Virus record (IMG/VR): IMGVR_UViG_3300010352_001127
Strand: one strand, 5' to 3'
Source of the DNA: a virus
Lineage: Duplodnaviria > Heunggongvirae > Uroviricota > Caudoviricetes
Length of the DNA stretch: 64,000 nucleotides
Shown here: positions 10,301-47,816 of the stretch, piece after piece
Layout: the number at the start of each line of letters is the position of its first letter
How positions within the stretch are numbered: the first letter of the stretch is position 1
Notes under the pieces: generated by a model
What the model was told of the DNA's origin: nothing
The model's input: only the letters and a program-made list of their open reading frames with translations
Database searches by the model: none
Translations under genes and position numbers: made by a program

Positions 10301-13300
10301 CTGTACCAGATGTTCCTGATGTCCCGCCTGTTCCGCTTGTTCCACTACTTCCATCATGACCCGATGTTCCTGAAGTGCCACCCGTGCCTGAAGTACCACC
10401 TGTGCCACCAGTTCCACTAGTTCCACTACTTCCAGAAGTTCCACTAGTTCCACTACTTCCAGAAGTTCCGCTTGTTCCACTACTACCATCGTGGCCAGAA
10501 GTTCCACTAGTTCCGCTTGTTCCACTACTACCATCGTGGCCAGAAGTTCCACTAGTTCCAGCAGTTCCACTTGTGCCAGAAGTGCCACCTGTTCCGCTTG
10601 TACCACTACTTCCATCATGTCCAGATGTACCTGATGTTCCACTTGTTCCGGAAGTACCACCTGTTCCACTTGTACCACTACTTCCATCATGTCCAGATGT
10701 ACCTGATGTTCCACTTGTTCCTGCTGTACCTGATGTTCCACTTGTACCGCCTGTACCTGAAGTTCCACTACTACCTGATGTTCCACTCGTGCCACTAGTT
10801 CCCGAAGTACCACTACTACCTTGTTTTCCAGAAGTACCACTTGTACCACTAGTTCCACTACTTCCTGAAGTTCCACCAGTTCCAGAAGTACCACCTGTTC
10901 CATTTGTACCTGATGTACCACTTGTCCCGCTAGTTCCGCTAGTCCCACTACTACCATCATGTCCAGATGTTCCAGAAGTTCCAGAAGTACCACCTGTTCC
11001 GTTAGTTCCTGAAGTACCACCTGCTCCACTAGTTCCACTACTTCCATCATGACCTGAAGTTCCAGAAGTACCACTTGTCCCGCTAGTTCCGCTAGTCCCA
11101 CTACTACCATCATGTCCAGATGTTCCTGAAGTTCCAGAAGTACCACCTGTTCCACTAGTTCCACTACTTCCATCACGACCTGAAGTTCCTGAAGTGCCGC
11201 CTGTTCCGTTAGTTCCTGAAGTACCACCTGTTCCACTAGTTCCACTAGTTCCGCTTGTTCCACTACTACCACTAGTACCGCCAGTTCCGCCTGTACCAGA
11301 AGTACCACTTGTTCCCGATGTGCCACTGCTACCATCATGACCGGAAGTTCCACTAGTTCCACTTGTTCCACTAGTTCCACTACTACCATCATGTCCAGAA
11401 GTACCACTAGTTCCTGAAGTACCACCTGTTCCACTAGTTCCTGAAGTGCCGCCTGTTCCACTTGTACCACTGCTACCATCAACGCCCGAAGTTCCAGAAG
11501 TTCCTCCTGTACCTGATGTTCCATTTGTCCCACTTGTGCCTCCAGTGCCTGAAGTACCACTACTACCAGATGTGCCTGAAGTTCCTCCAGTACCACTAGT
11601 TCCACTACTACCTTGTTTTCCAGAAGTACCACTAGTTCCACTACTTCCAGAAGTTCCTGAAGTGCCAGAAGTTCCCCCAGTGCCACTTGTTCCTCCAATA
11701 CCACTAGTTCCACTACTTCCAGAAGTTCCTGAAGTGCCAGAAGTTCCCCCAGTGCCACTTGTTCCTCCAATACCACTAGTTCCACTACTTCCATCATAAC
11801 CACTTGTTCCCGAAGTTCCTCCCGTACCTGATGTTCCTGAAGTACCACCTGTACCACTAGTTCCACTACTTCCATCATGACCACTTGTTCCAGAAGTGCC
11901 ACTGCTACCACTTGTACCGCTTGTTCCGCCAGTACCAGAAGTGCCACCTGTTCCACTAGTTCCACTAGTACCGCTACTACCATCGTGTCCTGATGTACCA
12001 CTTGTTCCTGAAGTTCCTCCAGTACCACTAGTTCCGCTAGTTCCTGAAGTTCCACTACTTCCATCGTGACCAGAAGTACCACTAGTTCCACTAGTTCCGT
12101 TTGTTCCTGAAGTTCCACCAGTTCCACTACTTCCTGTCGCACCTGATGTTCCAGAGGTTCCGCCGGCACCGCTAGTTCCTGATGTACCGCCAGTTCCACT
12201 AGTTCCACTACTTCCTCCTGTACCTGATGTGCCACTAGTTCCAGAAGTTCCACTCGTACCACCAGTTCCACTAGTTCCACTACTACCTTGTTTACCGGAA
12301 GTACCACTTGTACCACTACTTCCAGAAGTTCCCGAAGTGCCTGAAGTTCCTCCAGTACCACTTGTTCCTCCAGTACCACTAGTTCCACTACTTCCTGTTG
12401 CGCCAGAAGTTCCAGATGTTCCGCCTGTTCCAGATGTACCACTAGTTCCACCTGTTCCAGATGTACCGCTACTCCCATCGTGACCTGAAGTACCTGATGT
12501 ACCTGAAGTACCACTTGTTCCTCCTGTTCCTGAAGTTCCTCCAGTTCCGCTAGTCCCACTACTTCCTGAAGTTCCGCTAGTCCCACTTGTTCCTGAAGTT
12601 CCACCTGTGCCATTTGTTCCACTAGTACCACTTGATCCTGATACTCCACTTGTTCCACTAGTTCCTCCAGTTCCACTAGTTCCACCTGTTCCACTAGTTC
12701 CAGAAGAACCAGACGTACCACTTGTTCCGCTAGTTCCCGAAGTACCACTACTACCTTTTGCGCCCGAAGTTCCACTAGTTCCAGATATACCACTAGTTCC
12801 ACCTGTACCTGATGTACCGCTCGTGCCGCCAGTTCCGCTAGTCCCGCTACTTCCACTTGTACCACTACTACCAGATGTTCCATTAGTTCCTGAAGTACCA
12901 CCAGTGCCATTCGTGCCACTCGTACCTCCAGTTCCTGAAGTACCACTACTACCTGATGTTCCACTAGTTCCACTACTTCCAGAAGTTCCACTAGTTCCAC
13001 TAGTTCCAGAAGTGCCACTGCTACCTGATGTACCGCTAGATCCAGAAGTACCACTAGTTCCTGATGTACCTGAAGTTCCACTTGTTCCTGAAGTACCGCC
13101 TGTTCCACTAGTACCGCTACTTCCTTGGGCTCCACTAGTTCCACTGGTTCCACTTGTACCCCCAGTACCGCTTGTTCCTGATGTCCCGCCTGTTCCACTA
13201 GTTCCACTACTACCTTGAGCCCCACTAGTTCCTGAAGTACCACTGCTACCTTGTGCTCCGCTGGTTCCACTTGTACCACCAGTTCCGCTAGTTCCACTAC

Positions 13301-16070
13301 TACCTTGAGCCCCGCTTGTTCCTGAAGTACCACCAGTACCACTCGTACCACTTGTACCACTTGTTCCCCCAGTACCACTAGTTCCACTACTACCTGATGT
13401 TCCACTAGTTCCACTACTTCCAGAAGTGCCTGAAGTTCCACCAGTTCCGCTTGTTCCAGATGAACCAGAAGTACCACTACTGCCCTGAGCTCCTGAAGTT
13501 CCAGATGTACCACCAGTCCCAGATGTTCCACTAGTTCCGCCAGTTCCGCTAGTTCCACTACTTCCTGAAGTACCTGATGTTCCACTACTACCAGATGTTC
13601 CCCCCGTACCTGAAGTTCCGCTAGATCCAGATGTTCCTCCTGACCCGCTTGTACCAGATGTTCCACTTGTACCGCCAGTTCCGCTAGTTCCACTACTACC
13701 TTGAGCTCCACTAGTTCCACTCGTGCCACTAGTTCCTGAAGTTCCACTACTACCTTGAGCTCCACTAGTTCCACTTGTTCCGCTAGATCCGCTAGTTCCA
13801 CTAGTACCGCTTGTGCCCGATGTACCTGAAGTTCCACTAGAACCACTTGTACCGCTGGTTCCACTGATACCAGTCAATCCACTAGTTCCACTTGTTCCTG
13901 AGGTGCCCCCAGTTCCGCTCGTACCGCTAGATCCAGAAGTACCACTACTACCAGAAGTACCTGAAGAACCTGATGTTCCGCTAGTTCCACTACTACCTGA
14001 TGTTCCACTTGTTCCAGACGTACCACTAGTCCCGCTAGTACCTGAAGTTCCACTAGTTCCACTGGATCCTGAAGTTCCCCCAGTGCCACTAGTTCCACTA
14101 CTACCTTGAGCTCCACTAGTTCCAGAAGTCCCACTACTACCTGATGTTCCACTTGTTCCAGAAGTACCACTACTACCCGATGTTCCAGATGTACCACCAG
14201 TCCCAGATGTTCCACTACTTCCACTAGTCCCTGAAGTTCCTGATGTTCCAGACGAACCACTCGTTCCTGATGTTCCTCCTGTACCTGATGTTCCTCCGGT
14301 TCCACTACTTCCTTGTGCTCCACTAGTTCCACTGGTTCCTGAAGTTCCGCTACTACCTGTTAAACCACTGGTTCCACTAGAACCACTAGTACCACTACTA
14401 CCACTAGTTCCTGATGTTCCGCTTGTACCACTGCTGCCAGATGTTCCACTAGTACCACTACTTCCTGAAGTTCCACTAGTACCACTAGTTCCTGATGTTC
14501 CGCTTGTACCACTGCTGCCAGATGTTCCACTAGTACCACTACTTCCTGAAGTTCCACTAGTTCCGCTACTACCACTAGTTCCAGATGTACCACTACTACC
14601 TTGTGCTCCACTAGTTCCACTACTACCAGTTTCTCCTGATGTTCCGCTGGTTCCGCTTGTACCTGAAGTTCCACTGGAACCAAAACCACTAGTACCAGAT
14701 GTTCCTAAACCAGCATCAGTATAAGTAAAAACAATAGGTTCGTCTAATATAAAATTGTTATTTGAATCTATCGGTGTAACATCTAATGTCCACCAAGATC
14801 CATTATCTGTTTTAGCATCTAAATAAAAAGTTGCAAATTTAGTAGAATCGTATTCATCGAATATTCTGATTCTAGACATTCCATTGGCATTAAGACTACT
14901 TAACCAAGAACTTATATCAACACCATCTTTACTTGTCTGACTTATGTATATTTGAGTTACTGAACCGTATACAGTATTATCAAATTTTAAATATCCAGAT
15001 AGAGGATTTGATGCTGTTGTTCCTGTTAAGAAATAATATGGTTGGCTATCACCTCCAAATATTCCAGATAAACCAGAAGATCCAGGAGAACCCATACCTG
15101 ATGTTCCACTAGTTCCACTTACACCACTACTTCCATAAAACCATCCATCAACACCAGATGATCCTGAAGTCCCACTACTTCCAGTTCCACCTTGAATATA
15201 AGATATTAAATACGATTTCCCGTTTGTAGCTGAACCTCCTCCTGATGCGTAAACTGAAAATCCAGTTATTTCATAAAAATTGCCACCTAATCCAAGATTA
15301 ACACTATTAATGGGAACATTATATATGCCTACAACTGAAAGATTTTCTCTCTCTTCTATTTTTAATACGCCTTGAATATTCCACGAACTTAACCAATTAT
15401 TTACAAGATCTCCATTCGCGTCCCATTTATTTATTCTTATATTTGTTACAGCCCCTAAATTTGAATTATTTATGTAGAATTTTCCATTCCCAGGAGTTGA
15501 TGTACTATTATCATAAACCCATTTACGCGTAGCTCCACCATAACCACCATCTATACCGCTACTTCCACTAGTTCCACTACTACCTCCGAGTCCTGATGTA
15601 CCACTTGATCCACTAGAGCCTGATGTACCTGAAGATCCTGCTTCGCCGCTACTTCCACTTGTTCCGGATGTACCACTTGTGCCACTTGTTCCTCTACCGC
15701 TTGTTCCGCTTGTGCCACCTGTTCCACTCGTACCTCCAGTTCCACTGGTTCCGCCAGTTCCGTCTCTGCCGCTGCTACCACTTGATCCATCTCTACCACT
15801 ACTACCACTTGTTCCATCAGCTCCGCTTGATCCAAAGAAAACACCATCAACACCCGATGTACCGTCTTTTCCAGATGTGCCACTAGTTCCACCTCCACCA
15901 CTTCCTGAAGATGTCGCACCAGTACATGGCAAATAATAAATATTTCCCCACTCGTCCTTTTGCCAAAGGCCGCAAAAACCATCTATAAAATCTTGACCTA
16001 AGTATATATGCCCCGGATCTGGATTACCAATTAGTTTCGGGTCTACTCTTTGGATTTTTTTGAAACTCAT
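7329..16070 (-). CDS. Giant collagen-like fibre protein (2913 aa): N-terminal ~470-aa duplicated beta-rich domain, ~2250 aa of (G-T/S-S/G)n collagen triplets, C-terminal ~190-aa globular domain
   Basis: Uninterrupted G-X-Y periodicity over about 6.7 kb with no Pro and with periodic charged triplets (GHD, GKQ, GND, GAQ, GRD). The conserved N-terminus is shared with the paralog at 1..1028. Codons GGN-ACT-AGT dominate. Confidence 0.8.
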   Translation of the reverse strand: MSFKKIQRVDPKLIGNPDPGHIYLGQDFIDGFCGLWQKDEWGNIYYLPCTGATSSGSGGGGTSGTSGKDGTSGVDGVFFGSSGADGTSGSSGRDGSSGSSGRDGTGGTSGTGGTSGTGGTSGTSGRGTSGTSGTSGTSGSSGEAGSSGTSGSSGSSGTSGLGGSSGTSGSSGIDGGYGGATRKWVYDNSTSTPGNGKFYINNSNLGAVTNIRINKWDANGDLVNNWLSSWNIQGVLKIEERENLSVVGIYNVPINSVNLGLGGNFYEITGFSVYASGGGSATNGKSYLISYIQGGTGSSGTSGSSGVDGWFYGSSGVSGTSGTSGMGSPGSSGLSGIFGGDSQPYYFLTGTTASNPLSGYLKFDNTVYGSVTQIYISQTSKDGVDISSWLSSLNANGMSRIRIFDEYDSTKFATFYLDAKTDNGSWWTLDVTPIDSNNNFILDEPIVFTYTDAGLGTSGTSGFGSSGTSGTSGTSGTSGETGSSGTSGAQGSSGTSGTSGSSGTSGTSGSSGTSGTSGSSGTSGTSGTSGTSGTSGSSGTSGTSGSSGTSGTSGTSGSSGTSGSSGTSGLTGSSGTSGTSGTSGAQGSSGTGGTSGTGGTSGTSGSSGTSGTSGTSGSSGTSGTGGTSGTSGSSGTSGTSGTSGSSGTSGTSGAQGSSGTSGTGGTSGSSGTSGTSGTSGTSGTSGTSGTSGSSGTSGTSGSSGTSGSSGTSGSSGTSGTGGTSGTSGTSGLTGISGTSGTSGSSGTSGTSGTSGTSGTSGSSGTSGTSGAQGSSGTSGTSGTSGTSGAQGSSGTSGTGGTSGTSGTSGSGGTSGSSGTSGTGGTSGSSGTSGTSGSSGTSGTGGTSGTSGTGGTSGTSGAQGSSGTSGSSGTSGTGGTSGTSGSSGTSGTSGSSGTSGTGGTSGTSGTSGTGGTSGTSGAQGSSGTSGTGGTSGTSGAQGSSGTSGTSGAQGSSGTSGTGGTSGTSGTGGTSGTSGTSGAQGSSGTSGTGGTSGTSGTSGTSGTSGTSGSSGTSGSSGTSGTSGTSGTSGSSGTSGTSGSSGTSGTGGTSGTNGTGGTSGTNGTSGSSGTSGSSGTSGTGGTSGTSGTGGTSGISGTSGTSGAKGSSGTSGTSGTSGTSGSSGTSGTGGTSGTGGTSGTSGVSGSSGTSGTNGTGGTSGTSGTSGTSGSSGTSGTGGTSGTGGTSGTSGTSGTSGHDGSSGTSGTGGTSGTSGTGGTSGTSGATGSSGTSGTGGTSGTGGTSGTSGTSGSSGTSGTSGKQGSSGTSGTGGTSGTSGTSGTSGTGGSSGTSGTGGTSGTSGAGGTSGTSGATGSSGTGGTSGTNGTSGTSGTSGHDGSSGTSGTSGTSGTGGTSGTSGTSGHDGSSGTSGTSGTGGTSGTGGTSGTSGSSGTSGTSGHDGSSGTSGTGGTSGTSGTGGTSGTSGYDGSSGTSGIGGTSGTGGTSGTSGTSGSSGTSGIGGTSGTGGTSGTSGTSGSSGTSGTSGKQGSSGTSGTGGTSGTSGSSGTSGTGGTSGTNGTSGTGGTSGTSGVDGSSGTSGTGGTSGTSGTGGTSGTSGTSGHDGSSGTSGTSGTSGTSGHDGSSGTSGTSGTSGTGGTGGTSGSSGTSGTSGTSGTGGTSGTNGTGGTSGTSGRDGSSGTSGTGGTSGTSGTSGHDGSSGTSGTSGTSGTSGTSGHDGSSGTSGAGGTSGTNGTGGTSGTSGTSGHDGSSGTSGTSGTSGTSGTNGTGGTSGTGGTSGSSGTSGTSGTSGKQGSSGTSGTSGTSGTSGSSGTSGTGGTSGTSGTAGTSGTSGTSGHDGSSGTSGTGGTSGTSGTSGTSGHDGSSGTSGTGGTSGTSGTAGTSGTSGHDGSSGTSGTSGTSGHDGSSGTSGTSGSSGTSGTSGSSGTSGTGGTGGTSGTGGTSGTSGHDGSSGTSGTGGTSGTSGTGGTSGTGGTSGTSGHDGSSGTSGTGGTSGTSGTGGTSGTSGHDGTSGTSGTSGTGGTSGTNGTGGTSGTGGTSGSSGTSGTNGTSGKQGSSGTSGTSGTSGTNGTSGTSGSSGTSGTSGHDGSSGTSGTGGTSGTSGHDGSSGTSGTGGTSGTSGTGGTSGTSGTSGTSGKQGSSGTSGTGGTSGTSGTSGTSGSSGTSGTGGTSGSSGTSGTSGTSGHDGSSGTSGTGGTSGTSGTGGTSGTSGTSGKQGSSGTSGTGGTSGTGGTSGLTGSSGTSGTGGTSGTNGTGGTSGTGGTSGTSGASGSSGTSGTSGKQGSSGTSGTGGTSGTSGTNGTSGSSGTSGTGGTSGTNGTGGTSGTSGNDGSSGTSGTGGTSGTNGTGGTSGTAGTSGHDGSSGTSGTGGTSGTSGHDGSSGTSGTSGTSGTSGHDGSSGTSGTSGTSGTSGTSGTSGTSGHDGSSGTSGTSGHDGTGGTSGTSGTGGTSGTSGHDGSSGTSGTGGTSGTSGHDGSSGTSGTGGTSGTNGTGGTSGTSGTSGKQGSSGTSGTGGTSGTNGTGGTSGTSGTSGHDGSSGTSGTSGNDGSSGTSGTSGNDGSSGTSGTSGTGGTSGTSGNDGSSGTSGTGGTSGTNGTGGTSGTSGTSGRQGSSGTSGTGGTSGTNGTGGTSGTSGNDGSSGTSGTSGHDGTGGTSGTGGTSGTSGTSGKQGSSGTSGTGGTSGTSGTAGITGSSGTSGTGGTSGTSGTGGTSGTSGTSGKQGSSGTSGTSGARGTSGTSGNDGTSGTSGVSGTSGTSGTSGITGSSGTSGIGVTYYYVNDIPPFSWATAWASQSKIDLSTTHGVTGGNGTSGFSVKVNCYYYMDHLMDTGTTSQMTAIDYSLAAMREYRFNVFVDQTGSYTNYVTDTKTVQHSGYWVKYNSETPSPGRHASIDTQGQIGPNDIDAEALIYSSKPYLLLKNNLRSATGWDPSPSYKLQLKYTVDVIEYSYVSANNTEI
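7900..14700. repeat. Collagen-triplet nonamer-based repeat region containing perfect in-frame tandem duplications (99 bp at 10171-10403, 72 bp at 11627-11793, 81 bp at 14401-14562)
   Basis: Direct comparison of the sequence lines shows exact 99-, 72- and 81-nt units repeated 2-2.3 times. All are multiples of 9 nt, so Gly phase is preserved. Confidence 0.7.
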
Positions 16071-17125: not shown

Positions 17126-18106
17126 TTAATAGTTAAAAAAATTCTTTTTAACTATATCTATAGCTTTTTGTGTTCTTTCTTCCCAATCAGTTCCACTCAC
17201 AACCTCCATTTTTAAATTTTTAGATTTAAAAAAGTTGTATTGGAAATCACCAAGATCATCTCTTTTTTCTTTTGAAAGGCGAGTTCCATCTTGTATATAA
17301 GGGGCATCTTTATCTAAGAAAATGTATAAATCGAATTTGTTTGCTTCTTCAATCCAATTATCGAATACGGGTTCAAGATCGAAGAAAAATTTAGAATAAG
17401 ATTTTGTTGTATTTAAATTTGTGTCGCTAAATAATATCCTATTAGCGTGTTTTATTTCTTCGATTATGCCACTAGCATGAGCTTTTCCAACATTCATGAT
17501 ATCTTTTATAGTTGTATTGTCTGAATGTTCGATTATATCTCTACCCCACTCTTTTACATAAGATGTTTGAAAAACTTTTGACAATTTTTCTGTAAGAACT
17601 GTTTTTCCAGTACTTTCTGTTCCACACAGACATATTTTCTTAACAAAATAAGGTCTTGCTACAAGTGATATATAATCCCAATACTTGAAAGGATTTTCTC
17701 TTATCTGAGTGCCACTTATTGGAACAGTTTCACGTTTTTCGTCAAATATTACATATCCACAATTCATATACTCAGCAACATACTCTGCGTAAGGTTCTGA
17801 AGCAAACACAACATCTACATTATCTAAAGTTTTACTTATGTGATCAGCCCATAGTTTAGATACTTCCCTATCAGAAACAGAAGTATATGGAAGTTTTACA
17901 TCGGTATATCTTATAATAACTTTATAATCATCCCTATATTTATCCGTAAGCCAGTGAAGTCTCACGTAACCTGGTATGGTTTCTTTTTCGTCATTCATAC
18001 ATAAAAGAACATATAAGAGATCACATTTCTCTTTAGCAAAATTTATAAGTGCTTCGTGACCTAAAGAAATTGGTTCTGCTTTTAAAATTATCAGTCCTCT
18101 TATCAT
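17126..18106 (-). CDS. nadR: NadR-type bifunctional NMN adenylyltransferase / ribosylnicotinamide kinase (no HTH domain)
   Basis: Nucleotidyltransferase (H/T)xGH-type motif (GLIILKAEPISLGHEALI) near the N-terminus. Later P-loop LCGTESTGKT (GxESxGKS/T of the NadR RNK domain). 326 aa. Confidence 0.7.
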   Translation of the reverse strand: MIRGLIILKAEPISLGHEALINFAKEKCDLLYVLLCMNDEKETIPGYVRLHWLTDKYRDDYKVIIRYTDVKLPYTSVSDREVSKLWADHISKTLDNVDVVFASEPYAEYVAEYMNCGYVIFDEKRETVPISGTQIRENPFKYWDYISLVARPYFVKKICLCGTESTGKTVLTEKLSKVFQTSYVKEWGRDIIEHSDNTTIKDIMNVGKAHASGIIEEIKHANRILFSDTNLNTTKSYSKFFFDLEPVFDNWIEEANKFDLYIFLDKDAPYIQDGTRLSKEKRDDLGDFQYNFFKSKNLKMEVVSGTDWEERTQKAIDIVKKNFFNY

Positions 18107-18942
18107 TCAAATATTTTTTTTATATTTTTGAAGTTGTTATTTATAATCAGATTATAATCATAATATTTCTTGGATTCATTCATTTTAATTTCATTAATAT
18201 TTCTTTTCTTATTCCACAAATAACTTGATTTTATTTCAAAGACTATGTTTGTATTTTTTATTCTATAGTCTATATAATAATTATGTTCTTTTCCGCTATC
18301 ATCAAAATAACTTATACGAGGTCCTCTTTCAATCAAATCAAATTTACCGATGGATTCAACAAATTTTAAAAATTTTAATTCATAACTGCTTTGATAATCT
18401 ATGCCATTATATTGTTTTATTCTTATTCTTCCCCATCCACTATTAGGTTTTCTTCTCCCTTCTTTAAAAGCTTTAATGGCTGCATCACTCATTCTTTTTT
18501 TAATATCATCAGATAGTTTAGTCCCCTTTCTTTTTTCTGCCATTTTTATCCATCCTTGTTTTTCTTTTATTTTTTGTTTAGAAGATTCCCAAGTAAAAGG
18601 GTTTCCGTTCTCATTCAACCATTTTTTAAGCCCTATTTTAGCATTATTGTTTGGTTTTCCAAAATTTCCGTTTCTATCTCCTTTATTTTGACATTTGGTA
18701 CAAAAATGTTCATTTTTATCTGGTTTTAGATCTCTTATTCTTCTTTCGAATATTACACCACAATCATCACATTTTACTTTTATAAATTTTATTCTATAAT
18801 CTCTTTTTGATTTTAGTAATGACCAATGAACTAAAAAAGGTTCGTTTATATTTGGTCTATAACCGAGTGTTTTTTTCCATCTGTCGGGTTGAGTGTAATG
18901 TGTTAAGACAACTTCAACGTTTTCATATTCTTTTATATACAT
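18103..18942 (-). CDS. Freestanding homing-endonuclease-like protein: N-terminal Zn-ribbon (KVKCDDCG…CTKCQ) + C-terminal PD-(D/E)XK-like domain
   Basis: The N-terminal CxxC…CxxC segment is paralogous to those of 42922..44574 and 46691..47581. C-terminal …IDYRIKNTNIVFEIKSSY… resembles a D…E.K nuclease core. ATGA overlap with nadR. Confidence 0.4.
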   Translation of the reverse strand: MYIKEYENVEVVLTHYTQPDRWKKTLGYRPNINEPFLVHWSLLKSKRDYRIKFIKVKCDDCGVIFERRIRDLKPDKNEHFCTKCQNKGDRNGNFGKPNNNAKIGLKKWLNENGNPFTWESSKQKIKEKQGWIKMAEKRKGTKLSDDIKKRMSDAAIKAFKEGRRKPNSGWGRIRIKQYNGIDYQSSYELKFLKFVESIGKFDLIERGPRISYFDDSGKEHNYYIDYRIKNTNIVFEIKSSYLWNKKRNINEIKMNESKKYYDYNLIINNNFKNIKKIFE

Positions 18943-18956
18943 AAGAACTTTTTATT

Positions 18957-18971
18957 CTTATATATTAAAAA
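18957..18971 (-). promoter_or_regulatory. Promoter-like box CTTATATATTAAAAA upstream of 18103..18942
   Basis: Motif family member, 15 nt upstream of the ATG. Confidence 0.45.
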
Positions 18972-19008
18972 CTAAAAATCACTTTTAACCTTTTCATTGT
19001 GGTCATTT

Positions 19009-30762: not shown

Positions 30763-30890
30763 AAATGAAAATTAATTTTTAATATATAATGCAAATTGCG
30801 GATTATAAATTGTTTTACAAAATTAATAAATTTAATTTAGATATTAAAAAATTTTATTAATTTTGTAAAAATAAAAGAATAAAAATATTT

Positions 30891-32039: not shown

Positions 32040-32083
32040 ACAAGACTGACCTTCTTTAATATATAAAGAAAAAAGGAAGTGTT

Positions 32084-40329: not shown

Positions 40330-41385
40330 TTATTCTTGTTTTATTTCCACTTCTTTAGATTCAGCTTTAGTTTTTTCTTCGTCTTCTCTTTCTGTAACAT
40401 ATTTTCTGGGGCATTCTGCATGATAGGTATTATTCCATTGATAATTTCTATAAGGCTGTGGTAATCTTGTATAGTTGTCTGTTAATAAATTATGCTCGAA
40501 ATTAACATACATCGAATCAAACGGACAATAATTCAGGAATCTGGTTTCTAATGATATTAAGAGGGTAGAGTAGTTTGGAGCGGTTGATTTTTCAATAGCG
40601 TTATATTTATTTCTTAAATATTCTCTTATCATAATATCATATTTTCCCCCCACTCCATAAGCATTACCCCACACTGTATGAACTTCGCCCTTTTTCCAAT
40701 CTCCAACGGTTTCTACTTGTGGACCTTGTTGGAACGATCTACGTGCTACTATAACATCATTATCCCAAACAACAGCGACTCCACAATTATCTGGATTTTT
40801 TGTATAAATGTGAAATTGTGCTAAAGTTGGTTCTGGATAATTTCCAAACGCATTCTCGGCTTGTTTGAAATTAGCACAACTATAACCAAAATTTTTTATA
40901 AGTTCGTTGTTGTAATTGTAACCTCTGAGAAGTTCTTCGCCTCTATATTCTACAACTCGAGCGGATTTGTTTTTTATTTCAATGTTCCATTTATTTATAA
41001 AAGACTCTAAATCAACTGGTTTAATATAACTGTTTAAATAAGCTTCATTATACACTTCACGTAAAACTTTTGTTGATTTCATTTTAACTCTGCGCGGTGA
41101 TGTCCATAAATTTCCTTCGCTGAAAAAACGCGGTTTAATAAAAGAGATATTTCCTTCAGCGTCAACATCAAAATAATCTGGAGGTTCTTTTGTTGAATAT
41201 TTTCTTTCAATACCTTCTTTTAATCTCAAATAAAATTCAGCCACTTTATATTCGTTTTTCATTGGCATTAAAATTTTCAAAAGTTTATTGGATATTTGAA
41301 AGAATATCTTTTCATCTGGATCTTTTGGAGGAAGATCAGATTGAATTTGCTCATTAAGAAAATCTAAATAGTGTTTTATTATCAT
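40330..41385 (-). CDS. Family-X paralog E (divergent subfamily: YSCANF…KNPDNCGV…GRRSFQQG…YCPFDSM)
   Basis: Co-linear with 41404.. (about 55% identity by eye) and more distantly with A-D (R…SC, NPD, GR, YP.D.M blocks). Confidence 0.5.
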   Translation of the reverse strand: MIIKHYLDFLNEQIQSDLPPKDPDEKIFFQISNKLLKILMPMKNEYKVAEFYLRLKEGIERKYSTKEPPDYFDVDAEGNISFIKPRFFSEGNLWTSPRRVKMKSTKVLREVYNEAYLNSYIKPVDLESFINKWNIEIKNKSARVVEYRGEELLRGYNYNNELIKNFGYSCANFKQAENAFGNYPEPTLAQFHIYTKNPDNCGVAVVWDNDVIVARRSFQQGPQVETVGDWKKGEVHTVWGNAYGVGGKYDIMIREYLRNKYNAIEKSTAPNYSTLLISLETRFLNYCPFDSMYVNFEHNLLTDNYTRLPQPYRNYQWNNTYHAECPRKYVTEREDEEKTKAESKEVEIKQE

Positions 41386-41403: not shown

Positions 41404-42432
41404 TTACCCCATACTTAATCCTCTTGTAAAATAATATGGATCTCTTTCAAAATTTAAATCTGGTTCTGGTTTTGGTTCGTTTAGATGTTTTTCTTCTTCT
41501 ATTCTTTTTTTAACAAGTTTTGTAGGACAACTTGCTCCATAAGCTCTTGTCCATTTATGATTTCCTCCTCCACCATCGGATAATAAATTATCTTCAAAAC
41601 ACACTTCCATTCCATCGAAAGGAGGGTATGTAAGAAATCTGGTTTCAAATTTAATAATAAAAGATCCATCTTTTGTATGCATTCCATTGGCGTTGTATTC
41701 TTCCCTTAAATAATCTCTTATCATAACGTCATACACACCACCACATCCATAATGATTTCCATAAACAGTATAATATTGTCCTTTTTTATAATATCCTCTA
41801 TTTTCAACTTGAATTCCTTGTTGATAAGTTCTTCTTCCCATTATTTTTCCTTTATCGACAACTACCACAACTCCACAATTATCTGGATTTTTAACATAAA
41901 CATCATAAATATTGGTGTTTCTACCTTTATACCAATTAGCGCAAGAAAGACCGAAATTAGAAGATAACTCTCCTGTTACACCATAAGCTCTAAGAACATC
42001 TTCACCTCTTAGATCTTCTATGTGAGGTTTGTTATCTTCTTTTCTGTGTAATATCGACCACTTATTTACAAAAGCTTCGATATCAGTTTGCTTTATCTGA
42101 CTATTTATATAAGACTCGTTGTATATGTCGCGTAATATTTTTGAAGCTTTAGATTTTTGTCTTCTTTGTGAAGAAAATTCATTTCCTTTAAATTCTTCAA
42201 AATATCTAGATTTTAAAAAACTTATATTTCCTTCTGTGTCAACATCTAAAAAATCAACTGGATCTGTCACCAAATATTTCCTATCTACTCCTTCTTTCAA
42301 GCTAATAAGAAGCATGGCTACTTTATATTCATCCATCATTTTTGTGAGATCTTTCACTAAATTTTGAGATAAATTAAAGACTCTTCTATCTTCAACTTGC
42401 TCATTTATAAATCTATCAAATCTAGTTATCAT
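41404..42432 (-). CDS. Family-X paralog F (divergent subfamily)
   Basis: LSCANW…KNPDNCGVVVVV…GRRTYQQG…YPPFDGM; C-terminus …ERDPYYF. Confidence 0.5.
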   Translation of the reverse strand: MITRFDRFINEQVEDRRVFNLSQNLVKDLTKMMDEYKVAMLLISLKEGVDRKYLVTDPVDFLDVDTEGNISFLKSRYFEEFKGNEFSSQRRQKSKASKILRDIYNESYINSQIKQTDIEAFVNKWSILHRKEDNKPHIEDLRGEDVLRAYGVTGELSSNFGLSCANWYKGRNTNIYDVYVKNPDNCGVVVVVDKGKIMGRRTYQQGIQVENRGYYKKGQYYTVYGNHYGCGGVYDVMIRDYLREEYNANGMHTKDGSFIIKFETRFLTYPPFDGMEVCFEDNLLSDGGGGNHKWTRAYGASCPTKLVKKRIEEEKHLNEPKPEPDLNFERDPYYFTRGLSMG

Positions 42433-42681: not shown

Positions 42682-42781
42682 TAGTTCTTTTATTTTCTTA
42701 GTATATATATTAAAAAAATTAAACACATTTTATAAAAGGTAATATAAATAAGAAAATTATGATTTTTATAAAATAATATAT

Positions 42782-42925
42782 ATGAATATGATAAACAAAG
42801 AAAAAATAACTATTTCCTTAGATAAAGAAATTATAGAAAAATTGGAAAAAATATCTGATGAACAATGCGTTAATAAAAGCAAATTCATAAATAAAATATT
42901 AAAAGAACATTTTAAAAAATTATGA
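42782..42925 (+). CDS. Ribbon-helix-helix (CopG/Arc-like) small DNA-binding protein, 47 aa; not in the ORF track; ATGA-coupled to 42922..44574
   Basis: MNMINKEKITISLDKEIIEKLEKISDEQCVNKSKFINKILKEHFKKL: beta-strand KITISL, helix, N-capped second helix. Paralogous to 47562..47702. Confidence 0.45.
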   Translation: MNMINKEKITISLDKEIIEKLEKISDEQCVNKSKFINKILKEHFKKL

Positions 42926-44574
42926 TATTGTCAGAAAAAATTGATATAACGATATCAGCCAATAATAAAAAACATTATTTACAATGGTTTGATGATATCA
43001 AAGTAGGTGATAAGAAACAAGTATCTATCGAAATGATTCCTACGGGAAGTCATAAAATAATTACTTGTAAATGTGATATTTGTGGCGATGAAAAAAATAT
43101 TCCATATCGAGATTACATTAAGAGTTTAAATAATGGTAATATTTTTACATGCAATAAATGTAAAGATTTTAAAGTCAAAAAAACTAATCTGGAAAAATAT
43201 GGAGCAAAAAATTATTATAACAAAGAAAAAAGTAAAAGAACATGTTTAGAAAAATATGGTGTCGAAAACGTTTTTCAAAATGAGGGCATAAAGAAAAGAA
43301 TAAAGGAAAATAATTTGGAAAAATATGGAGTTGAATATACTTCACAAACAGAACATAATAAAAAGAAGTCGAAAGAAACTTGTATAGAGAAATATGGCGT
43401 AGAGCATCATTTAAAAAACAAAGATATTTTAGATAAGCAACATCAAACTAATTTGGAGAGATATGGAGTCGAACACACTTCTCAAAATAAAGAGGTGATG
43501 AAAAAAATAATAGAAAATTCAAAAAAGACAAGAAAAGAAACATTTTTAAATAAATATAAAAATAATCCAAATATTTTAGAAATAGATTACGAGAATAAAA
43601 TTTTTAAAATGACATGTAACAAAGGTCATGTCTTTGAAATAAATTTTGGTCTATTTCATAATAGAAAAGTCTTGAAAAACGAATTTTGTGTCGTTTGTAA
43701 TCCAATAGATTCATCAACGAGTGATCTAGAAAATCAATTATTAAAATTCATCGGAGAAAATTATAATGGAACAATTAAAAAAAATAAAAAAATTCTAGAA
43801 GATTTCGAAATAGATATTTATCTGCCAGATTTAAAACTTGGATTTGAATTTAACGGATTATACTGGCATAGCGAATTGTTCAAAGATAAAAAATATCATC
43901 TAAATAAAACCGAAGAATCTGAAAGAAACGGAATAAAATTGATTCACATTTATGAGGACGACTGGTTATATAAACAAGAAATAGTAAAATCTAGAATATT
44001 AAATCTTTTGGGCAAATCCGAAAAAATTCACGCTAGAAAATGTGAAATTAAAGAAATAGAAAACAATGATTTGATTAGAGAATTTCTCAATAAGAATCAT
44101 TTACAAGGATTCGTTGGGTCAAAAGTAAAAATAGGACTATTTTATAACGATGAGTTAGTTTCTTTGATGACGTTTGGTGCTCTTAGAAAATCCTTGGGAC
44201 AATCAAAAGTAAAAGATGTTTATGAAATGATAAGATTTTGTAATAAATTAAATACCAATGTAATAGGAGGGGCTGGTCGCATGTTTAAATATTTTATAGA
44301 AAAATATAATCCCAAAGAAATTATAAGTTATGCAGATAGAAGTTGGTCATCCGGTGGTTTATATGAGAAACTAGAATTTAAATTGGTGCATAAAACGAGG
44401 CCAAATTATTATTATTTTAAAAATAAAAACAAATATCATAGATTTAACTTTAGAAAAGATATTTTAATAAAAAACGGAGCTGATCCAAATAAAACAGAGT
44501 ACGATATAATTGTTGAGAAAGGATATTATAGAATATATGACTCTGGAAATCTAAAATTTATCTGGACATCTTAA
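42922..44574 (+). CDS. Homing-endonuclease-like protein: N-terminal Zn-ribbon, five tandem ~30-aa (L)EKYGVE..SQ..KKK..ET repeats (NUMOD3-like DNA-binding modules), C-terminal Vsr/DUF559-like PD-(D/E)XK nuclease domain
   Basis: Repeats LEKYGAKNYYNKEKSKRTC / LEKYGVENVFQNEGIKKRIKENN / LEKYGVEYTSQTEHNKKKSKETC / IEKYGVEHHLKNKDILDKQHQTN / LERYGVEHTSQNKEVMKK. Nuclease block IDIYLPDLKLGFEFNGLYWHSE…ERNGIKLIHIYEDDW. Confidence 0.5.
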   Translation: MILSEKIDITISANNKKHYLQWFDDIKVGDKKQVSIEMIPTGSHKIITCKCDICGDEKNIPYRDYIKSLNNGNIFTCNKCKDFKVKKTNLEKYGAKNYYNKEKSKRTCLEKYGVENVFQNEGIKKRIKENNLEKYGVEYTSQTEHNKKKSKETCIEKYGVEHHLKNKDILDKQHQTNLERYGVEHTSQNKEVMKKIIENSKKTRKETFLNKYKNNPNILEIDYENKIFKMTCNKGHVFEINFGLFHNRKVLKNEFCVVCNPIDSSTSDLENQLLKFIGENYNGTIKKNKKILEDFEIDIYLPDLKLGFEFNGLYWHSELFKDKKYHLNKTEESERNGIKLIHIYEDDWLYKQEIVKSRILNLLGKSEKIHARKCEIKEIENNDLIREFLNKNHLQGFVGSKVKIGLFYNDELVSLMTFGALRKSLGQSKVKDVYEMIRFCNKLNTNVIGGAGRMFKYFIEKYNPKEIISYADRSWSSGGLYEKLEFKLVHKTRPNYYYFKNKNKYHRFNFRKDILIKNGADPNKTEYDIIVEKGYYRIYDSGNLKFIWTS

Positions 44575-45319
44575 ACCAAGATACGGTGCTTTGTTCCTTT
44601 ATATAAGTTTTTACTTCTTCTACCATTTCTTTTCCTTGTGTGATAATATCATTAGCGTTATAAGTAAAGTTACCTGGCATGTTGAAATTAAAACGACCAA
44701 TCAATTCGCCCATTCTGCTTCTACACATTCCAATAACAAATCTTTTAAACATTTCAAAATCAAATAATTCTTCTTCTTGAATTCTTACCCAGCATTCCAA
44801 CATTAAATTGGATTGATCTTTAATTTCTGATAAAAAGTGCAATCTTTTGTTTATGTGATTGTAGTTATGAGCTATGGTGTTTTTTGTAAGTTTATTAATT
44901 TCATCAGCAAAATAACTAATAGTAGATCTATAAAGCGCCAAATCACCAGCTGTAGTTACAAAAGAAGTCAAGAATGGTTGATTGGTTACACCAAGATTGA
45001 TGGATAGATTTGGCGCTTGAATACCTAATCTGAACAAAGATGTATCTTCCATTTTCACTATCTTTGTTATATTTTCAACTTCCTCGGGTAATTGAAAATA
45101 TTGAAACATCGCATATGTTTCTCTCGCCAGTTTGTCATATTTTAGAAAATAATAAAATTTTTGAACTGCGTATTGATAATTCTTATAAAACCACTCCAGA
45201 GCAATTTCTTTAATAACACGTCTAACTTCTTGATCGGGAAGAACTTTTGGAAGTGATCCAGAGAATGTTAAATCCTGTTGTACAATATCTATTAACTGCT
45301 CAAATGTTATTGAAGCCAT
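44558..45319 (-). CDS. Hypothetical protein (possible structural/assembly protein)
   Basis: ORF with promoter-like box TCTATATATTAATT at 45338-45350. Confidence 0.4.
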   Translation of the reverse strand: MASITFEQLIDIVQQDLTFSGSLPKVLPDQEVRRVIKEIALEWFYKNYQYAVQKFYYFLKYDKLARETYAMFQYFQLPEEVENITKIVKMEDTSLFRLGIQAPNLSINLGVTNQPFLTSFVTTAGDLALYRSTISYFADEINKLTKNTIAHNYNHINKRLHFLSEIKDQSNLMLECWVRIQEEELFDFEMFKRFVIGMCRSRMGELIGRFNFNMPGNFTYNANDIITQGKEMVEEVKTYIKEQSTVSWFKMSR

Positions 45320-46053: not shown

Positions 46054-46112
46054 CAACTTTATATATTAAATTTTGAAAAATTTTTTTTAATATATAAAAC
46101 TAAAACTCGTAA

Positions 46113-46712
46113 ATGAAAATGATAAGATTTTCTGACTACATAAAAGAAGCAGCAAACATAAAAAGCAACGACGGGATACTTGTTATAGTTGATGTTCAAA
46201 AACAATTTGATAAGTTTACTCCACAGAATTTTGAAGGAAATATTTCAAAATATTGCAAAGAATTTCCAAAAGATGATAACTCGGGCAAAGGAGTCTATCA
46301 AATATGGGACGCTAACAAAGCTCAAAATTTTAGTTACAACTTCCCAAACACTTTACAAGTTATTAAAAAAAATTATGGAACTAAATTTGATAATAGAATA
46401 AGGAAAATAGCAGAAAATTTATCCAAAAAATATCCAAATGCTAAAGAAGGACAACAATTCAAATTAAAAGATAGCAATTCATTTTTGGTTAGAGTTAACA
46501 ACAATCACAAATGGTTTTATGTCAACGAAGATTTATATAATCTTTATTTGAAATTAAAAGGAAAAACTATTATATTGGTTGGTGGAGCCTCGGAAGAATG
46601 TCTCTCAGATTTATATGTCTCCATGAAATCCTTCGGGATTAATCCAATCTACAACCACGATTATATTTATAGTGCTCAAACCAACGATAATCAGGTAGCT
46701 GCCCCCAAATAA
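46113..46712 (+). CDS. Hypothetical protein
   Basis: ORF preceded by TTAATATATAAAAC at 46096-46109. Confidence 0.4.
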   Translation: MKMIRFSDYIKEAANIKSNDGILVIVDVQKQFDKFTPQNFEGNISKYCKEFPKDDNSGKGVYQIWDANKAQNFSYNFPNTLQVIKKNYGTKFDNRIRKIAENLSKKYPNAKEGQQFKLKDSNSFLVRVNNNHKWFYVNEDLYNLYLKLKGKTIILVGGASEECLSDLYVSMKSFGINPIYNHDYIYSAQTNDNQVAAPK

Positions 46713-47581
46713 TCTTCATAATTTCTATTATATTTCTTAGAATTAATACGTCTCTTTGTTAAACACAAATTTTTAATGTCTGCTATATCTTCAGCATTAA
46801 TTTTATTTTTAAATCCCTCAAAAATTGTTATTTTATGATCGATCGTTGGATAATTCCCATCGTGATATGGTAAACTAAAATTATCTCTTATATATTCACC
46901 GTCATAATAATCTAATCCGTTCCAATTTTCTAATAATTTATTTTTGACTTTTTTTGTCAACGAATAAACTTTACTTTTATATAAATCGAACTCGTTTGTT
47001 AAAATATTATATCCCATTTTTTTGTGATATTCAAGTCTTTTCTCCGCCATTTCTTTCGACATTTGCGGATGTGGAACACCATAATTTTTCATACTAGTTT
47101 CTTCACTTTTTCCTTTAAAATCTTTATTTAACACATAATATTCAACACCATGTTTCTCCAACATCGTTTTCTTTCTCTTCTTTTTAATATTTTCACATTT
47201 AGAAGGATTATCCACTCCATAGTTTTTGATATTAGTTTCTTTGACTCTTTTTTTAGATTCTTCTGTTTTAGAATAATATTCCACTCCAAATTTATTCAAA
47301 GAGGTCAATTTAGCTTTCATTCTACCACATTTTGATCCACAAACATAAATGTTGTGTTTATTGAAACTTTTTAGGTAGTGTCTATACATCAAATCTTTTT
47401 CTTTTCCACAGACATCACATTTAACTTTAACTATACTATGACTTCCTTTGTTTAAATGCTCTACCGGAACTATCAATTTTTCTCCCTTTTTTAGATTTGA
47501 ATATCCAAGTGATATAAAATGTTTAAAATTGGCTGAATTTAAAGTCACCTCAGCTTCTTTACTTATTATCATTTTTATCAT
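46691..47581 (-). CDS. Homing-endonuclease-like paralog (Zn-ribbon + KYGVE/NYGV repeats; no Vsr-like domain)
   Basis: VKVKCDVCGKEKD…CGSKCG; repeats LNKFGVEYYSKTEESKKRVKETN / IKNYGVDNPSKCENIKKKRKKTM / LEKHGVEYY… / MKNYGVPHPQMSKEM. Confidence 0.45.
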   Translation of the reverse strand: MIKMIISKEAEVTLNSANFKHFISLGYSNLKKGEKLIVPVEHLNKGSHSIVKVKCDVCGKEKDLMYRHYLKSFNKHNIYVCGSKCGRMKAKLTSLNKFGVEYYSKTEESKKRVKETNIKNYGVDNPSKCENIKKKRKKTMLEKHGVEYYVLNKDFKGKSEETSMKNYGVPHPQMSKEMAEKRLEYHKKMGYNILTNEFDLYKSKVYSLTKKVKNKLLENWNGLDYYDGEYIRDNFSLPYHDGNYPTIDHKITIFEGFKNKINAEDIADIKNLCLTKRRINSKKYNRNYEDYLGAAT

Positions 47582-47702
47582 TTTTATTTTTTAAAAATTC
47601 TTTTATCAATATTTCTGTTAATTTATTAATTTGATATCCATTTTCTTTACAAAAGATTTTGAATTCTTCGTGGGTTTCATTTTCAATGTGTAGAGTTTTC
47701 AT
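47559..47702 (-). CDS. Ribbon-helix-helix-like small protein (47 aa), not in the ORF track; overlaps the start of 46691..47581
   Basis: MKTLHIENETHEEFKIFCKENGYQINKLTEILIKEFLKNKNDKNDNK; same beta-helix-helix layout and length as 42782..42925. Confidence 0.4.
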   Translation of the reverse strand: MKTLHIENETHEEFKIFCKENGYQINKLTEILIKEFLKNKNDKNDNK

Positions 47703-47765
47703 ATGACGATATTTTATTATTATATATTAAAATAAAAAGTCAAAAAATACCAATTTTGATAGCAT

Positions 47766-47797
47766 AAAAAAGGGAACCAAAATTTGGTTCCCTTTTT
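47766..47797 (-). terminator. Symmetric rho-independent terminator AAAAAGGGAACCAAAATTTGGTTCCCTTTTT (bidirectional in form), downstream of the SPFH gene
   Basis: 9-bp stem GGGAACCAA/TTGGTTCCC with a 3-nt loop, flanked by A5 and T5. Confidence 0.65.
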
Positions 47798-47816
47798 AAT
47801 TGAGGACTTCTAATTA

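Follow-up and report, generated by a model that had tools for sequence, protein, structure and literature searches.

Introduction

CopG (RepA) of plasmid pMV158 is a minimal ribbon-helix-helix (RHH) protein of 45 amino acids (aa), encoded by the first gene of a bicistronic operon with RepB. It represses its own promoter through a pseudo-palindromic operator that includes the -35 box. The controller (C) proteins of restriction-modification (R-M) systems are small DNA-binding proteins as well; each is co-transcribed, within a selfish and mobile unit, with a nuclease that can be lethal, and acts by feedback at its own promoter. Here we describe two gene cassettes in a 64,000-nucleotide (nt) stretch of DNA from a virus of the Caudoviricetes (IMG/VR record IMGVR_UViG_3300010352_001127); the whole stretch that was analysed is called the window below. 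Each cassette joins a gene for a small RHH protein (RHH1 or RHH2) to an overlapping free-standing homing endonuclease gene (HEG1 or HEG2). With a probability of about 60%, we read them as two mobile promoter-RHH-HEG cassettes in which the RHH protein is the predicted repressor of its own bicistronic transcript. CopG is the closest mechanistic analogue and, among solved structures, matches the RHH1 family best, aligning end to end. In pMV158, however, the gene downstream encodes a replication initiator on a plasmid, whereas here it is a HEG in a phage. C proteins differ in having a helix-turn-helix (HTH) and not an RHH fold, and in controlling a restriction endonuclease that is paired with a protective methyltransferase; there is no methyltransferase in the RHH-HEG cassettes.

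The closest conceptual analogue is the Arc protein of IS605 elements. This small RHH protein, sometimes of 50 aa or less and missed by annotation, is encoded beside TnpB and was shown experimentally to bind the native promoter of the TnpB/TnpA elements at the -35 region and to repress it (September 2026 preprint, bioRxiv 10.64898/2026.09.24.754181). The preprint mentions arc genes beside homing endonuclease genes in passing and does not analyse them. As in IS605, a small RHH protein lies inside a selfish element next to a nuclease in the window; the IS605 elements are, however, transposons of bacterial chromosomes with TnpA and an RNA-guided TnpB, whereas the cassettes of this huge phage carry protein-only HEGs in overlapping reading frames. 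The HEGs of phage T4 are tightly regulated: I-TevI is an autorepressor at its own promoter, and the starts of mobE, segC and mobA overlap the upstream open reading frame (ORF) by 1-23 nt, which limits translation (PMC2988022). Like the genes of the window, these are phage HEGs (free-standing or intron-borne) with start codons overlapping an upstream ORF, but the T4 endonuclease acts as its own repressor and the overlap is with a gene of the phage, whereas here the repressor-like gene is part of the cassette. Detailed knowledge of how free-standing HEGs avoid harming the carrier phage exists for only a few T4 genes.

The Hef / I-Bth0305I endonucleases (PMC3239194) resemble HEG1 in a Vsr-like catalytic domain with acidic and histidine residues and in N-terminal repeated DNA-binding motifs. 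HEG1 differs by an extra conserved C-terminal domain of ~190 aa and an N-terminal Cys4 domain, and no partner gene is reported for the members described so far. Our literature search found no paper on a dedicated RHH partner of Hef/EDxHD or HNH free-standing HEGs. Self-regulated selfish nuclease modules are a known class, of which the RHH-HEG cassettes would be a variant.

Results

The source of the window is a huge phage, a relative of the 735-kb LR756501, and the window contains two independent, self-contained free-standing homing-endonuclease cassettes. The order is the same in both: a promoter-like element of the phage's type, an RHH gene (45-50 aa), and a HEG whose start overlaps the RHH stop by 4-23 nt. 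Their parts are as follows.

42727..42787, plus strand: upstream control region of cassette 1, from the ortholog alignment
42788..42925, plus strand: RHH1, CopG-like ribbon-helix-helix protein, 45 aa from the conserved start (ORF from 42782; 47 aa if read from there)
42922..44574, plus strand: HEG1, predicted Hef-like / EDxHD free-standing homing endonuclease, 550 aa
47703..47761, minus strand: control region of cassette 2, with promoter-like boxes and an inverted repeat
47559..47702, minus strand: RHH2, Arc/omega/ParG-like ribbon-helix-helix protein, 47 aa; its last 14 nt overlap the HEG2 start
46691..47572, minus strand: HEG2, 293 aa from the conserved start at 47572 (ORF 46691..47581)

The initial annotation had placed small ORFs across the starts of the two HEGs, one on the plus and one on the minus strand, and their coordinates and sequences were as described. 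It had also called them unannotated, which does not hold everywhere, since public gene calls on the same contigs list genes of 45 and 47 aa. The RHH1 ORF ends in ...TTATGA, and the ATG of HEG1 at 42922 overlaps the RHH1 stop by 4 nt (ATGA). We set the RHH1 start at 42788 because all orthologs begin with MINKEK and the extra upstream ATG in the window is a local substitution. This conserved start gives 45 aa, and the identical length of 47 aa once noted for the two RHH proteins is therefore coincidental. HEG2 was assigned to the second ATG of its ORF, at 47572 (MIISKE...), by alignment with HEG1 and with orthologs, and on this basis RHH2 and HEG2 overlap by 14 nt.

Homologs of both small proteins were found in metagenomic assemblies. 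The six RHH1 homologs (P0002-P0007) are 69-84% identical to RHH1 in full-length alignments and 72-86% in local BLASTP, and the 13 RHH2 homologs are 62-85% identical to RHH2; tblastn of the 47-aa proteins against GenBank phages returned noise only. Pairwise ratios of nonsynonymous to synonymous substitutions (dN/dS) were 0.04-0.23 among RHH1 orthologs and 0.06-0.27 among RHH2 orthologs, with synonymous sites near saturation in both families. From this range (0.04-0.27) we therefore take both ORFs to be translated and under purifying selection; they are conserved protein-coding genes.

The RHH assignment that had been proposed for both proteins from their layout (an N-terminal strand and two helices) was supported by sequence profiles, with weaker evidence for RHH2. 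RHH1 scored 25.1 bits against Pfam RHH_3 over residues 5-45 (gathering threshold 21.6), matched the Arc-like repressor PHROG 3180 at 1e-5, and its family profile aligned end to end with CopG in the PDB (2cpg, residues 2-41, E = 0.0024), followed by the RHH domain of NikR (0.06). The RHH orthologs L018, L043 and L015b were also above an RHH gathering threshold in Pfam. RHH2 matched PHROG 3180 at 4.6e-7, and the best PDB matches of its family profile were the viral RHH repressor SvtR (2kel, E = 0.028) and ParG (0.33). The beta-strand residues of RHH2, MKTLHI, are invariant in the 13 homologs. The two families were collinear by hhalign (E = 0.0014, at a probability of only 17%), and a hidden Markov model of the RHH proteins matched only RHH1 and RHH2 among the 815 window ORFs of at least 30 aa. 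The AlphaFold2 monomer of RHH2 has coil at residues 1-7 and helices at 8-21 and 27-44, compatible with the RHH fold, while in that of RHH1 the strand region was built into helix 1 (predicted local distance difference test, pLDDT, 68-75 for both models).

HEG1 is a predicted Hef/EDxHD (Vsr-like) homing endonuclease. It matched the homing endonuclease family PHROG 3339 at 1e-127 and Pfam DUF7487 with 83.7 bits, and its relatives in GenBank are annotated as Hef or EDxHD homing endonucleases. An N-terminal domain with a Cys4 ribbon (aa 1-95) is followed by KYGVE repeats (DUF7487, aa 84-206), a Vsr-like nuclease domain (aa ~285-362) and a conserved C-terminal domain (aa 363-550). A 12-sequence HEG1 profile matched the catalytic domain of I-Bth0305I (3R3P) at aa 285-362 with E = 0.0022; single-sequence searches of the PDB with HEG1 and with HEG2 returned nothing, and only this family profile reached I-Bth0305I. 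The catalytic positions E296, D298, H316, E345 and D347 are invariant in the 12 sequences and agree with the EDxHD motif as defined for the family (PMC3239194).

HEG2 aligned with HEG1 in BLASTP over aa 1-212 only (37% identity, E = 1e-40), a region that comprises the N-terminal domain, the Cys4 ribbon and the KYGVE repeats. It scored 59 bits against DUF7487 and matched the homing endonuclease family PHROG 12131 at 8.5e-22. The initial view of the partners of both small ORFs as homing endonucleases is supported. The C-terminus of HEG2 has an invariant HNH-like motif, YPTIDHK...NLC.TK..NS.K; in an alignment of 8 homologs D245, H246 and N268 are invariant and N277 is present in 7. The match to the HNH endonucleases of PHROG 9645 was weak (E = 0.011), and for the HNH part there was no match in Pfam or the PDB. 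By these matches HEG2 reads as an N-terminal DNA-binding module of the HEG1 type joined to an HNH-like C-terminus. The N-terminal domain is widespread: at E <= 1e-3 it was found in 1,278 clusters, and the proteins that have it are 87-640 aa long. Among its 150 best relatives it begins at residue 1 in practically all, the longest extension being 25 aa, and a Rosetta-stone test found no RHH-HEG fusion. A nuclease-like gene at 18103..18942 had been listed as a third paralog; it had no significant similarity to HEG1 in BLASTP (E = 0.06, in the zinc-ribbon region only) and was rejected.

In relatives the pairing of the small gene with the nuclease gene was constant. Every RHH1 homolog examined lay at the same site, on the strand opposite to its flanks, and directly upstream of a Hef-like gene of 540-551 aa, which it overlapped by 23 nt and which converged on the gp13-like neck gene (contigs up to 590-643 kb). 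Every RHH2 homolog examined overlapped a HEG2-type gene of 282-292 aa by 14-23 nt. All HEG2-type cassettes examined converged on a homolog of the 199-aa gene, and their upstream neighbour varied by lineage (Band_7 or a gene of 231-235 aa). Outside these two clades such partners recur in a minority of the Hef-like genes: 4 of 79 IMG/VR loci carried an overlapping RHH ORF (L018, L033, L043 and L046), and 41 loci from contigs of genomes and metagenome-assembled genomes yielded two more (L125 and L130), for an RHH-type partner in only about 5-8% of Hef-like HEGs. There was no upstream RHH gene at the three nearest GenBank Hef homologs (LR756500, LR756502 and LR756504) or in Campylobacter phage CP220. 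The N-terminal HEG domains of L033 and L026 are 81% identical, yet of these two loci only L033 has an RHH gene, and their homology begins exactly at the HEG start codon. At one of the 79 IMG/VR loci (L075, 2346-2504) the RHH position was occupied by a 52-aa gene of the MerR/HTH_17 type (Pfam MerR, 45 bits) with the same ATGA overlap, a non-homologous replacement that argues for the role of a generic DNA-binding regulator. The HEG was embedded antisense in 9 of 12 RHH-bearing loci vs. 12 of 37 RHH-less loci, a trend only, since the loci are not independent.

Both cassettes were compared with the syntenic genome LR756501 (L108), whose proteins are 92% (gp13), 76% (199-aa gene), 84% (Band_7) and 77-80% (the next two genes) identical to those of the window. 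The flanking features in the window are these.

44558..45319, minus strand: gp13-like neck / head-tail adaptor gene (PHROG 211, 7e-18; PF26809 Phage_T4_gp13 in public gene calls)
46113..46712, plus strand: 199-aa gene, convergent with HEG2; the 3' ends overlap by 22 nt
47764..47800, no strand assigned: G+C-containing hairpin terminator AAAAAGGGAACCAA...TTGGTTCCCTTTTT, common to the empty-site genome; left insertion boundary of cassette 2

L108 has clean empty sites at both cassette positions. At the first, 15 nt separate gp13 from the gene that comes next in its operon; at the second, the 199-aa gene is directly followed by the hairpin terminator and Band_7. In the window, cassette 1 is placed between the gp13 stop and the downstream genes, antisense to the gp13 operon; its right edge abuts the gp13 stop codon, and the last 5 codons of HEG1 overlap the end of gp13 on the opposite strand. 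Cassette 2, inserted at about 46713-47763 (~1.05 kb), is bounded by the stop codon of the 199-aa gene on one side and by the terminator on the other. Between copies of cassette 2 in two genomic contexts, homology sets in at 47761, where the left arm of the palindrome described below starts. In L017 (3179-3769) the RHH gene is intact, but the HEG has been destroyed by the loss of about 400 internal codons, with MILTDK now running out of frame into ...IGLFYNDELVS, a stage of HEG decay with a surviving RHH gene. Because the syntenic genome has clean empty sites at both positions, we regard each promoter-RHH-HEG unit as mobile. The mobile two-gene cassette suggested in the initial annotation is strongly supported by the strict pairing in all sampled orthologs, by the empty sites and by homology that starts at the promoter/operator region. 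The RHH gene and the HEG are inherited, inserted and lost as a unit to which the promoter also belongs, and the patterns of presence, absence and decay are classical signatures of free-standing homing endonuclease genes.

Two further observations concern the edges and the insertion sites. L008 and L010 are 99.3% identical through the left flank, the RHH gene and the HEG, and they diverge exactly at the HEG 3' end (L008:5249), beyond which one has gp13 and the other a RecA gene; this breakpoint reflects either rearrangement at the edge of the cassette or a chimeric assembly. Hef-like HEGs lie on either side of the gp13-like gene in L015 (6127-7156), L017 (4616-6403), L018 (5190-6638) and L043 (5064-6560), and the one in L015 has its own RHH gene (RHH_3, 23.9 bits). 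The surroundings of gp13 thus look like a hot spot of HEG insertion. In LR756500 (L001, 1052-3518) the start of a Hef-like HEG ORF lies within the last part of an ORF fragment that resembles a DNA polymerase (IDTDS, then a Hint-like GDHSLIV), which could be an intein- or HEG-interrupted polymerase gene.

The regions upstream of both cassette families are 74-91% identical among orthologs, while synonymous sites are saturated; for RHH1 the conservation covers about 58 nt upstream of the start (74-83% identity, again with saturated synonymous sites). Cassette 1 has a promoter-like element, TGAT-N11-TAATATATAT, at 42760-42783. The corresponding motif TGAY-N10-WAATATATAW was observed 9 times in the window vs. 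1.6 expected; among the several genes preceded by it are RHH1, the 199-aa gene and the nuclease-like gene at 18103..18942. The sites in the window include the following:

18958-18981, minus strand
30766-30789, plus strand
32043-32066, plus strand
42760-42783, plus strand
46074-46097, plus strand

The motif probably represents the common promoter type of the phage, and since it is enriched in the window and lies upstream of RHH1 and of other genes, the cassettes appear to carry the usual promoter type of the phage. Upstream of RHH2 there are promoter-like boxes, a -35-like TTGACT (47743-47738) and a -10-like AATAAT (47721-47716), with a 16-nt spacer. The first overlaps a core inverted repeat, TCAAAA (47759-47754) N8 TTTTGA (47745-47740), which is a candidate operator. 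Relatives in family 2 (the RHH2 cassettes) have perfect palindromes with arms of 10-16 nt at -69..-29, whose right arm is the -35-like box. The palindromes compare as follows.

L101: ATAAAAAGTCAAAAAT-gact-ATTTTTGACTTTTTAT, arms of 16 nt
L109: AAAAAATATCAAAAA-tgactt-TTTTTGATATTTTTT, arms of 15 nt
L115: arms of 15 nt
L103: arms of 10 nt
L098: arms of 7-8 nt
Window: TCAAAA-N8-TTTTGA (47759-47740), arms of 6 nt

Differences between the arms are compensatory (AGTC/GACT vs. ATATC/GATAT), and the palindrome core is invariant in family 2, as is the RHH2 beta-strand. In three lineages shuffled sequences reached the observed arm length in at most 1 of 1,000 trials (p <= 0.001). Five inverted repeats with arms of at least 10 nt occurred in the upstream regions of 40 RHH-less HEGs; four of them were hairpins that contain G+C and resemble terminators, and most of these lay farther from the gene. 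The RHH2 leader was not found in IMG/VR by a DNA-pattern scan.

Discussion

We propose that an RHH dimer binds the promoter of its own cassette, in family 2 at the TCAAAA-N6-10-TTTTGA palindrome, and that binding would repress transcription of the bicistronic mRNA. Early in infection the cassette would then be expressed in a short pulse and afterwards shut off, and the overlapping reading frames may hold translation of the HEG below that of the repressor. Such feedback could limit the toxicity of the nuclease. Less antisense transcription would also run into gp13 and the 199-aa gene, the essential neighbours on which the HEGs converge, because the 3' ends overlap by 17 and 22 nt without a terminator between them. 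The selfish element would thereby reside at low cost in the phage genome. Autoregulation at the cassette promoter is plausible, and autorepression is better supported for the family of cassette 2 than for cassette 1.

Several results weigh against this reading. Family 1, including RHH1, has no palindrome or repeat above background in its upstream region, and in the window the palindrome of family 2 has decayed to 6-nt arms in very AT-rich DNA, where short inverted repeats are common. The promoters were assigned from the motif enriched in the window and from a consensus scan which, for sigma-70 promoters and terminators, performed no better than shuffles of this AT-rich DNA. RHH2 is below threshold in Pfam (Omega_Repress 18.7 bits, threshold 33.3; ParG 14.5 bits, threshold 21.4). 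Neither AlphaFold2 monomer has the N-terminal strand, and Foldseek gave no significant match with the monomer models, which cannot decide the fold because the ribbon needs a partner chain and forms only in the dimer. About 90% of related HEGs are without such a partner, so its benefit is not general. A missing Shine-Dalgarno sequence was rejected as a sign of translational coupling, since the genome hardly uses one: a Shine-Dalgarno-like tetramer precedes only 5 of the 48 window ORFs of at least 150 aa, and the leaders are A/T-rich. This usage suggests a host with Shine-Dalgarno-independent initiation, such as Bacteroidota. An RNA hairpin over the AUG of HEG1 was weak (z = -2.1), and there was none over the HEG2 start.

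The RHH protein might instead be an accessory or immunity factor in homing, which would bind the recognition site of the HEG or the cassette edge and protect the donor or aid target recognition or repair. In support of such a two-component system, the mobile unit opens with the palindrome, and in the sampled homologs the RHH gene always travels with the HEG. The palindrome, however, lies over a promoter-like element, as expected of an operator, the empty sites of L108 contain no such sequence, and related HEGs home without any RHH protein; we consider this explanation unlikely. In a more speculative form, to which we give only an outside chance, the RHH protein and the palindrome would be a portable control or immunity unit within the homing mechanism, for example a nucleoprotein complex at the edge that protects the donor allele or sets the conversion boundary, and this could allow antisense HEG invasion of essential late operons. 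If true, it would be the first two-component free-standing homing system, with a dedicated DNA-binding partner deciding where and when a HEG persists. Rather unlikely, too, is a regulator that serves the phage by controlling neighbouring genes or insulating them from the inserted promoter, its link with the HEG being mere hitch-hiking. In 8 of 11 scorable RHH- or HTH-bearing loci the RHH gene and a divergent upstream gene have their intergenic region in common, and the RHH gene was kept in L017 after HEG loss; yet the upstream neighbour varies (Band_7 or a 235-aa, 94-aa or 358-aa gene) while the RHH-HEG unit is constant, and the genome with empty sites lacks the RHH gene although its flanking genes are intact.

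An antitoxin-like partner had also been suggested, and the gene order, a small RHH gene followed by an overlapping and potentially toxic nuclease gene, does resemble type II toxin-antitoxin operons with RHH antitoxins, in which the RHH protein would neutralise the nuclease by direct binding and possibly also repress the operon. There were weak, sub-threshold matches to the CopG_antitoxin, HicB and BrnA antitoxin families. This idea fared poorly and is quite improbable: the proteins are bare RHH domains of 45-51 aa whose profile covers residues 4-43, with no toxin-binding C-terminal extension, and their short tails are dictated by overlapping HEG codons. Also against it stand the partnerless majority of the family, the close relatives L033 and L026 that differ only in RHH presence, the intact RHH gene without a functional HEG in L017, the MerR-type HTH gene in L075, and the lack of fusion proteins among the 150 best relatives of the N-terminal domain. 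A regulator is favoured over an antitoxin or an obligatory subunit because of the minimal size, the dispensability of the partner in most HEGs, the L075 replacement and the survival of RHH in L017. Very improbable, finally, is a programmed frameshift, by which slippage in the overlap would yield an RHH-HEG fusion endonuclease. A-rich sequence does occur in the overlaps (T AAA AAA before the start of HEG1), but the two frames are related by -1 in the window (42788 to 42922) and by +1 in L008/L015 (3501 to 3631), the overlaps vary in length (4, 14, 23 and 26-29 nt), and natural fusions are absent from those same 150 relatives; we rejected it because frame relations and overlap lengths differ among orthologs.

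Two nuclease classes and several phage lineages share a compact, conserved unit of ~1 kb, in which a promoter/operator region is combined with a repressor-like gene of 45 aa and a gene for the nuclease. If autorepression by the RHH protein holds, transcriptional feedback by a micro-protein would be a general strategy of selfish nuclease elements, linking HEGs with IS605/Arc, the C proteins of R-M systems and plasmid CopG. It would, in addition, yield an operator and its repressor for direct testing, as well as a compact module for self-limiting expression of a nuclease that might be useful to engineers. The cassettes also illustrate that even genes this small (50 aa or less) can be informative about function in huge phages.

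Other features of the window

Two tandem paralogous genes of 351 and 342 aa (40330-41385 and 41404-42432) have no PHROG match and are also duplicated in L108 and L017. At 7329-16070 on the minus strand, one ORF of 2,913 aa holds many long nested GTG-initiated ORFs on both strands, which suggests that its product is a compositionally biased, repetitive structural protein.

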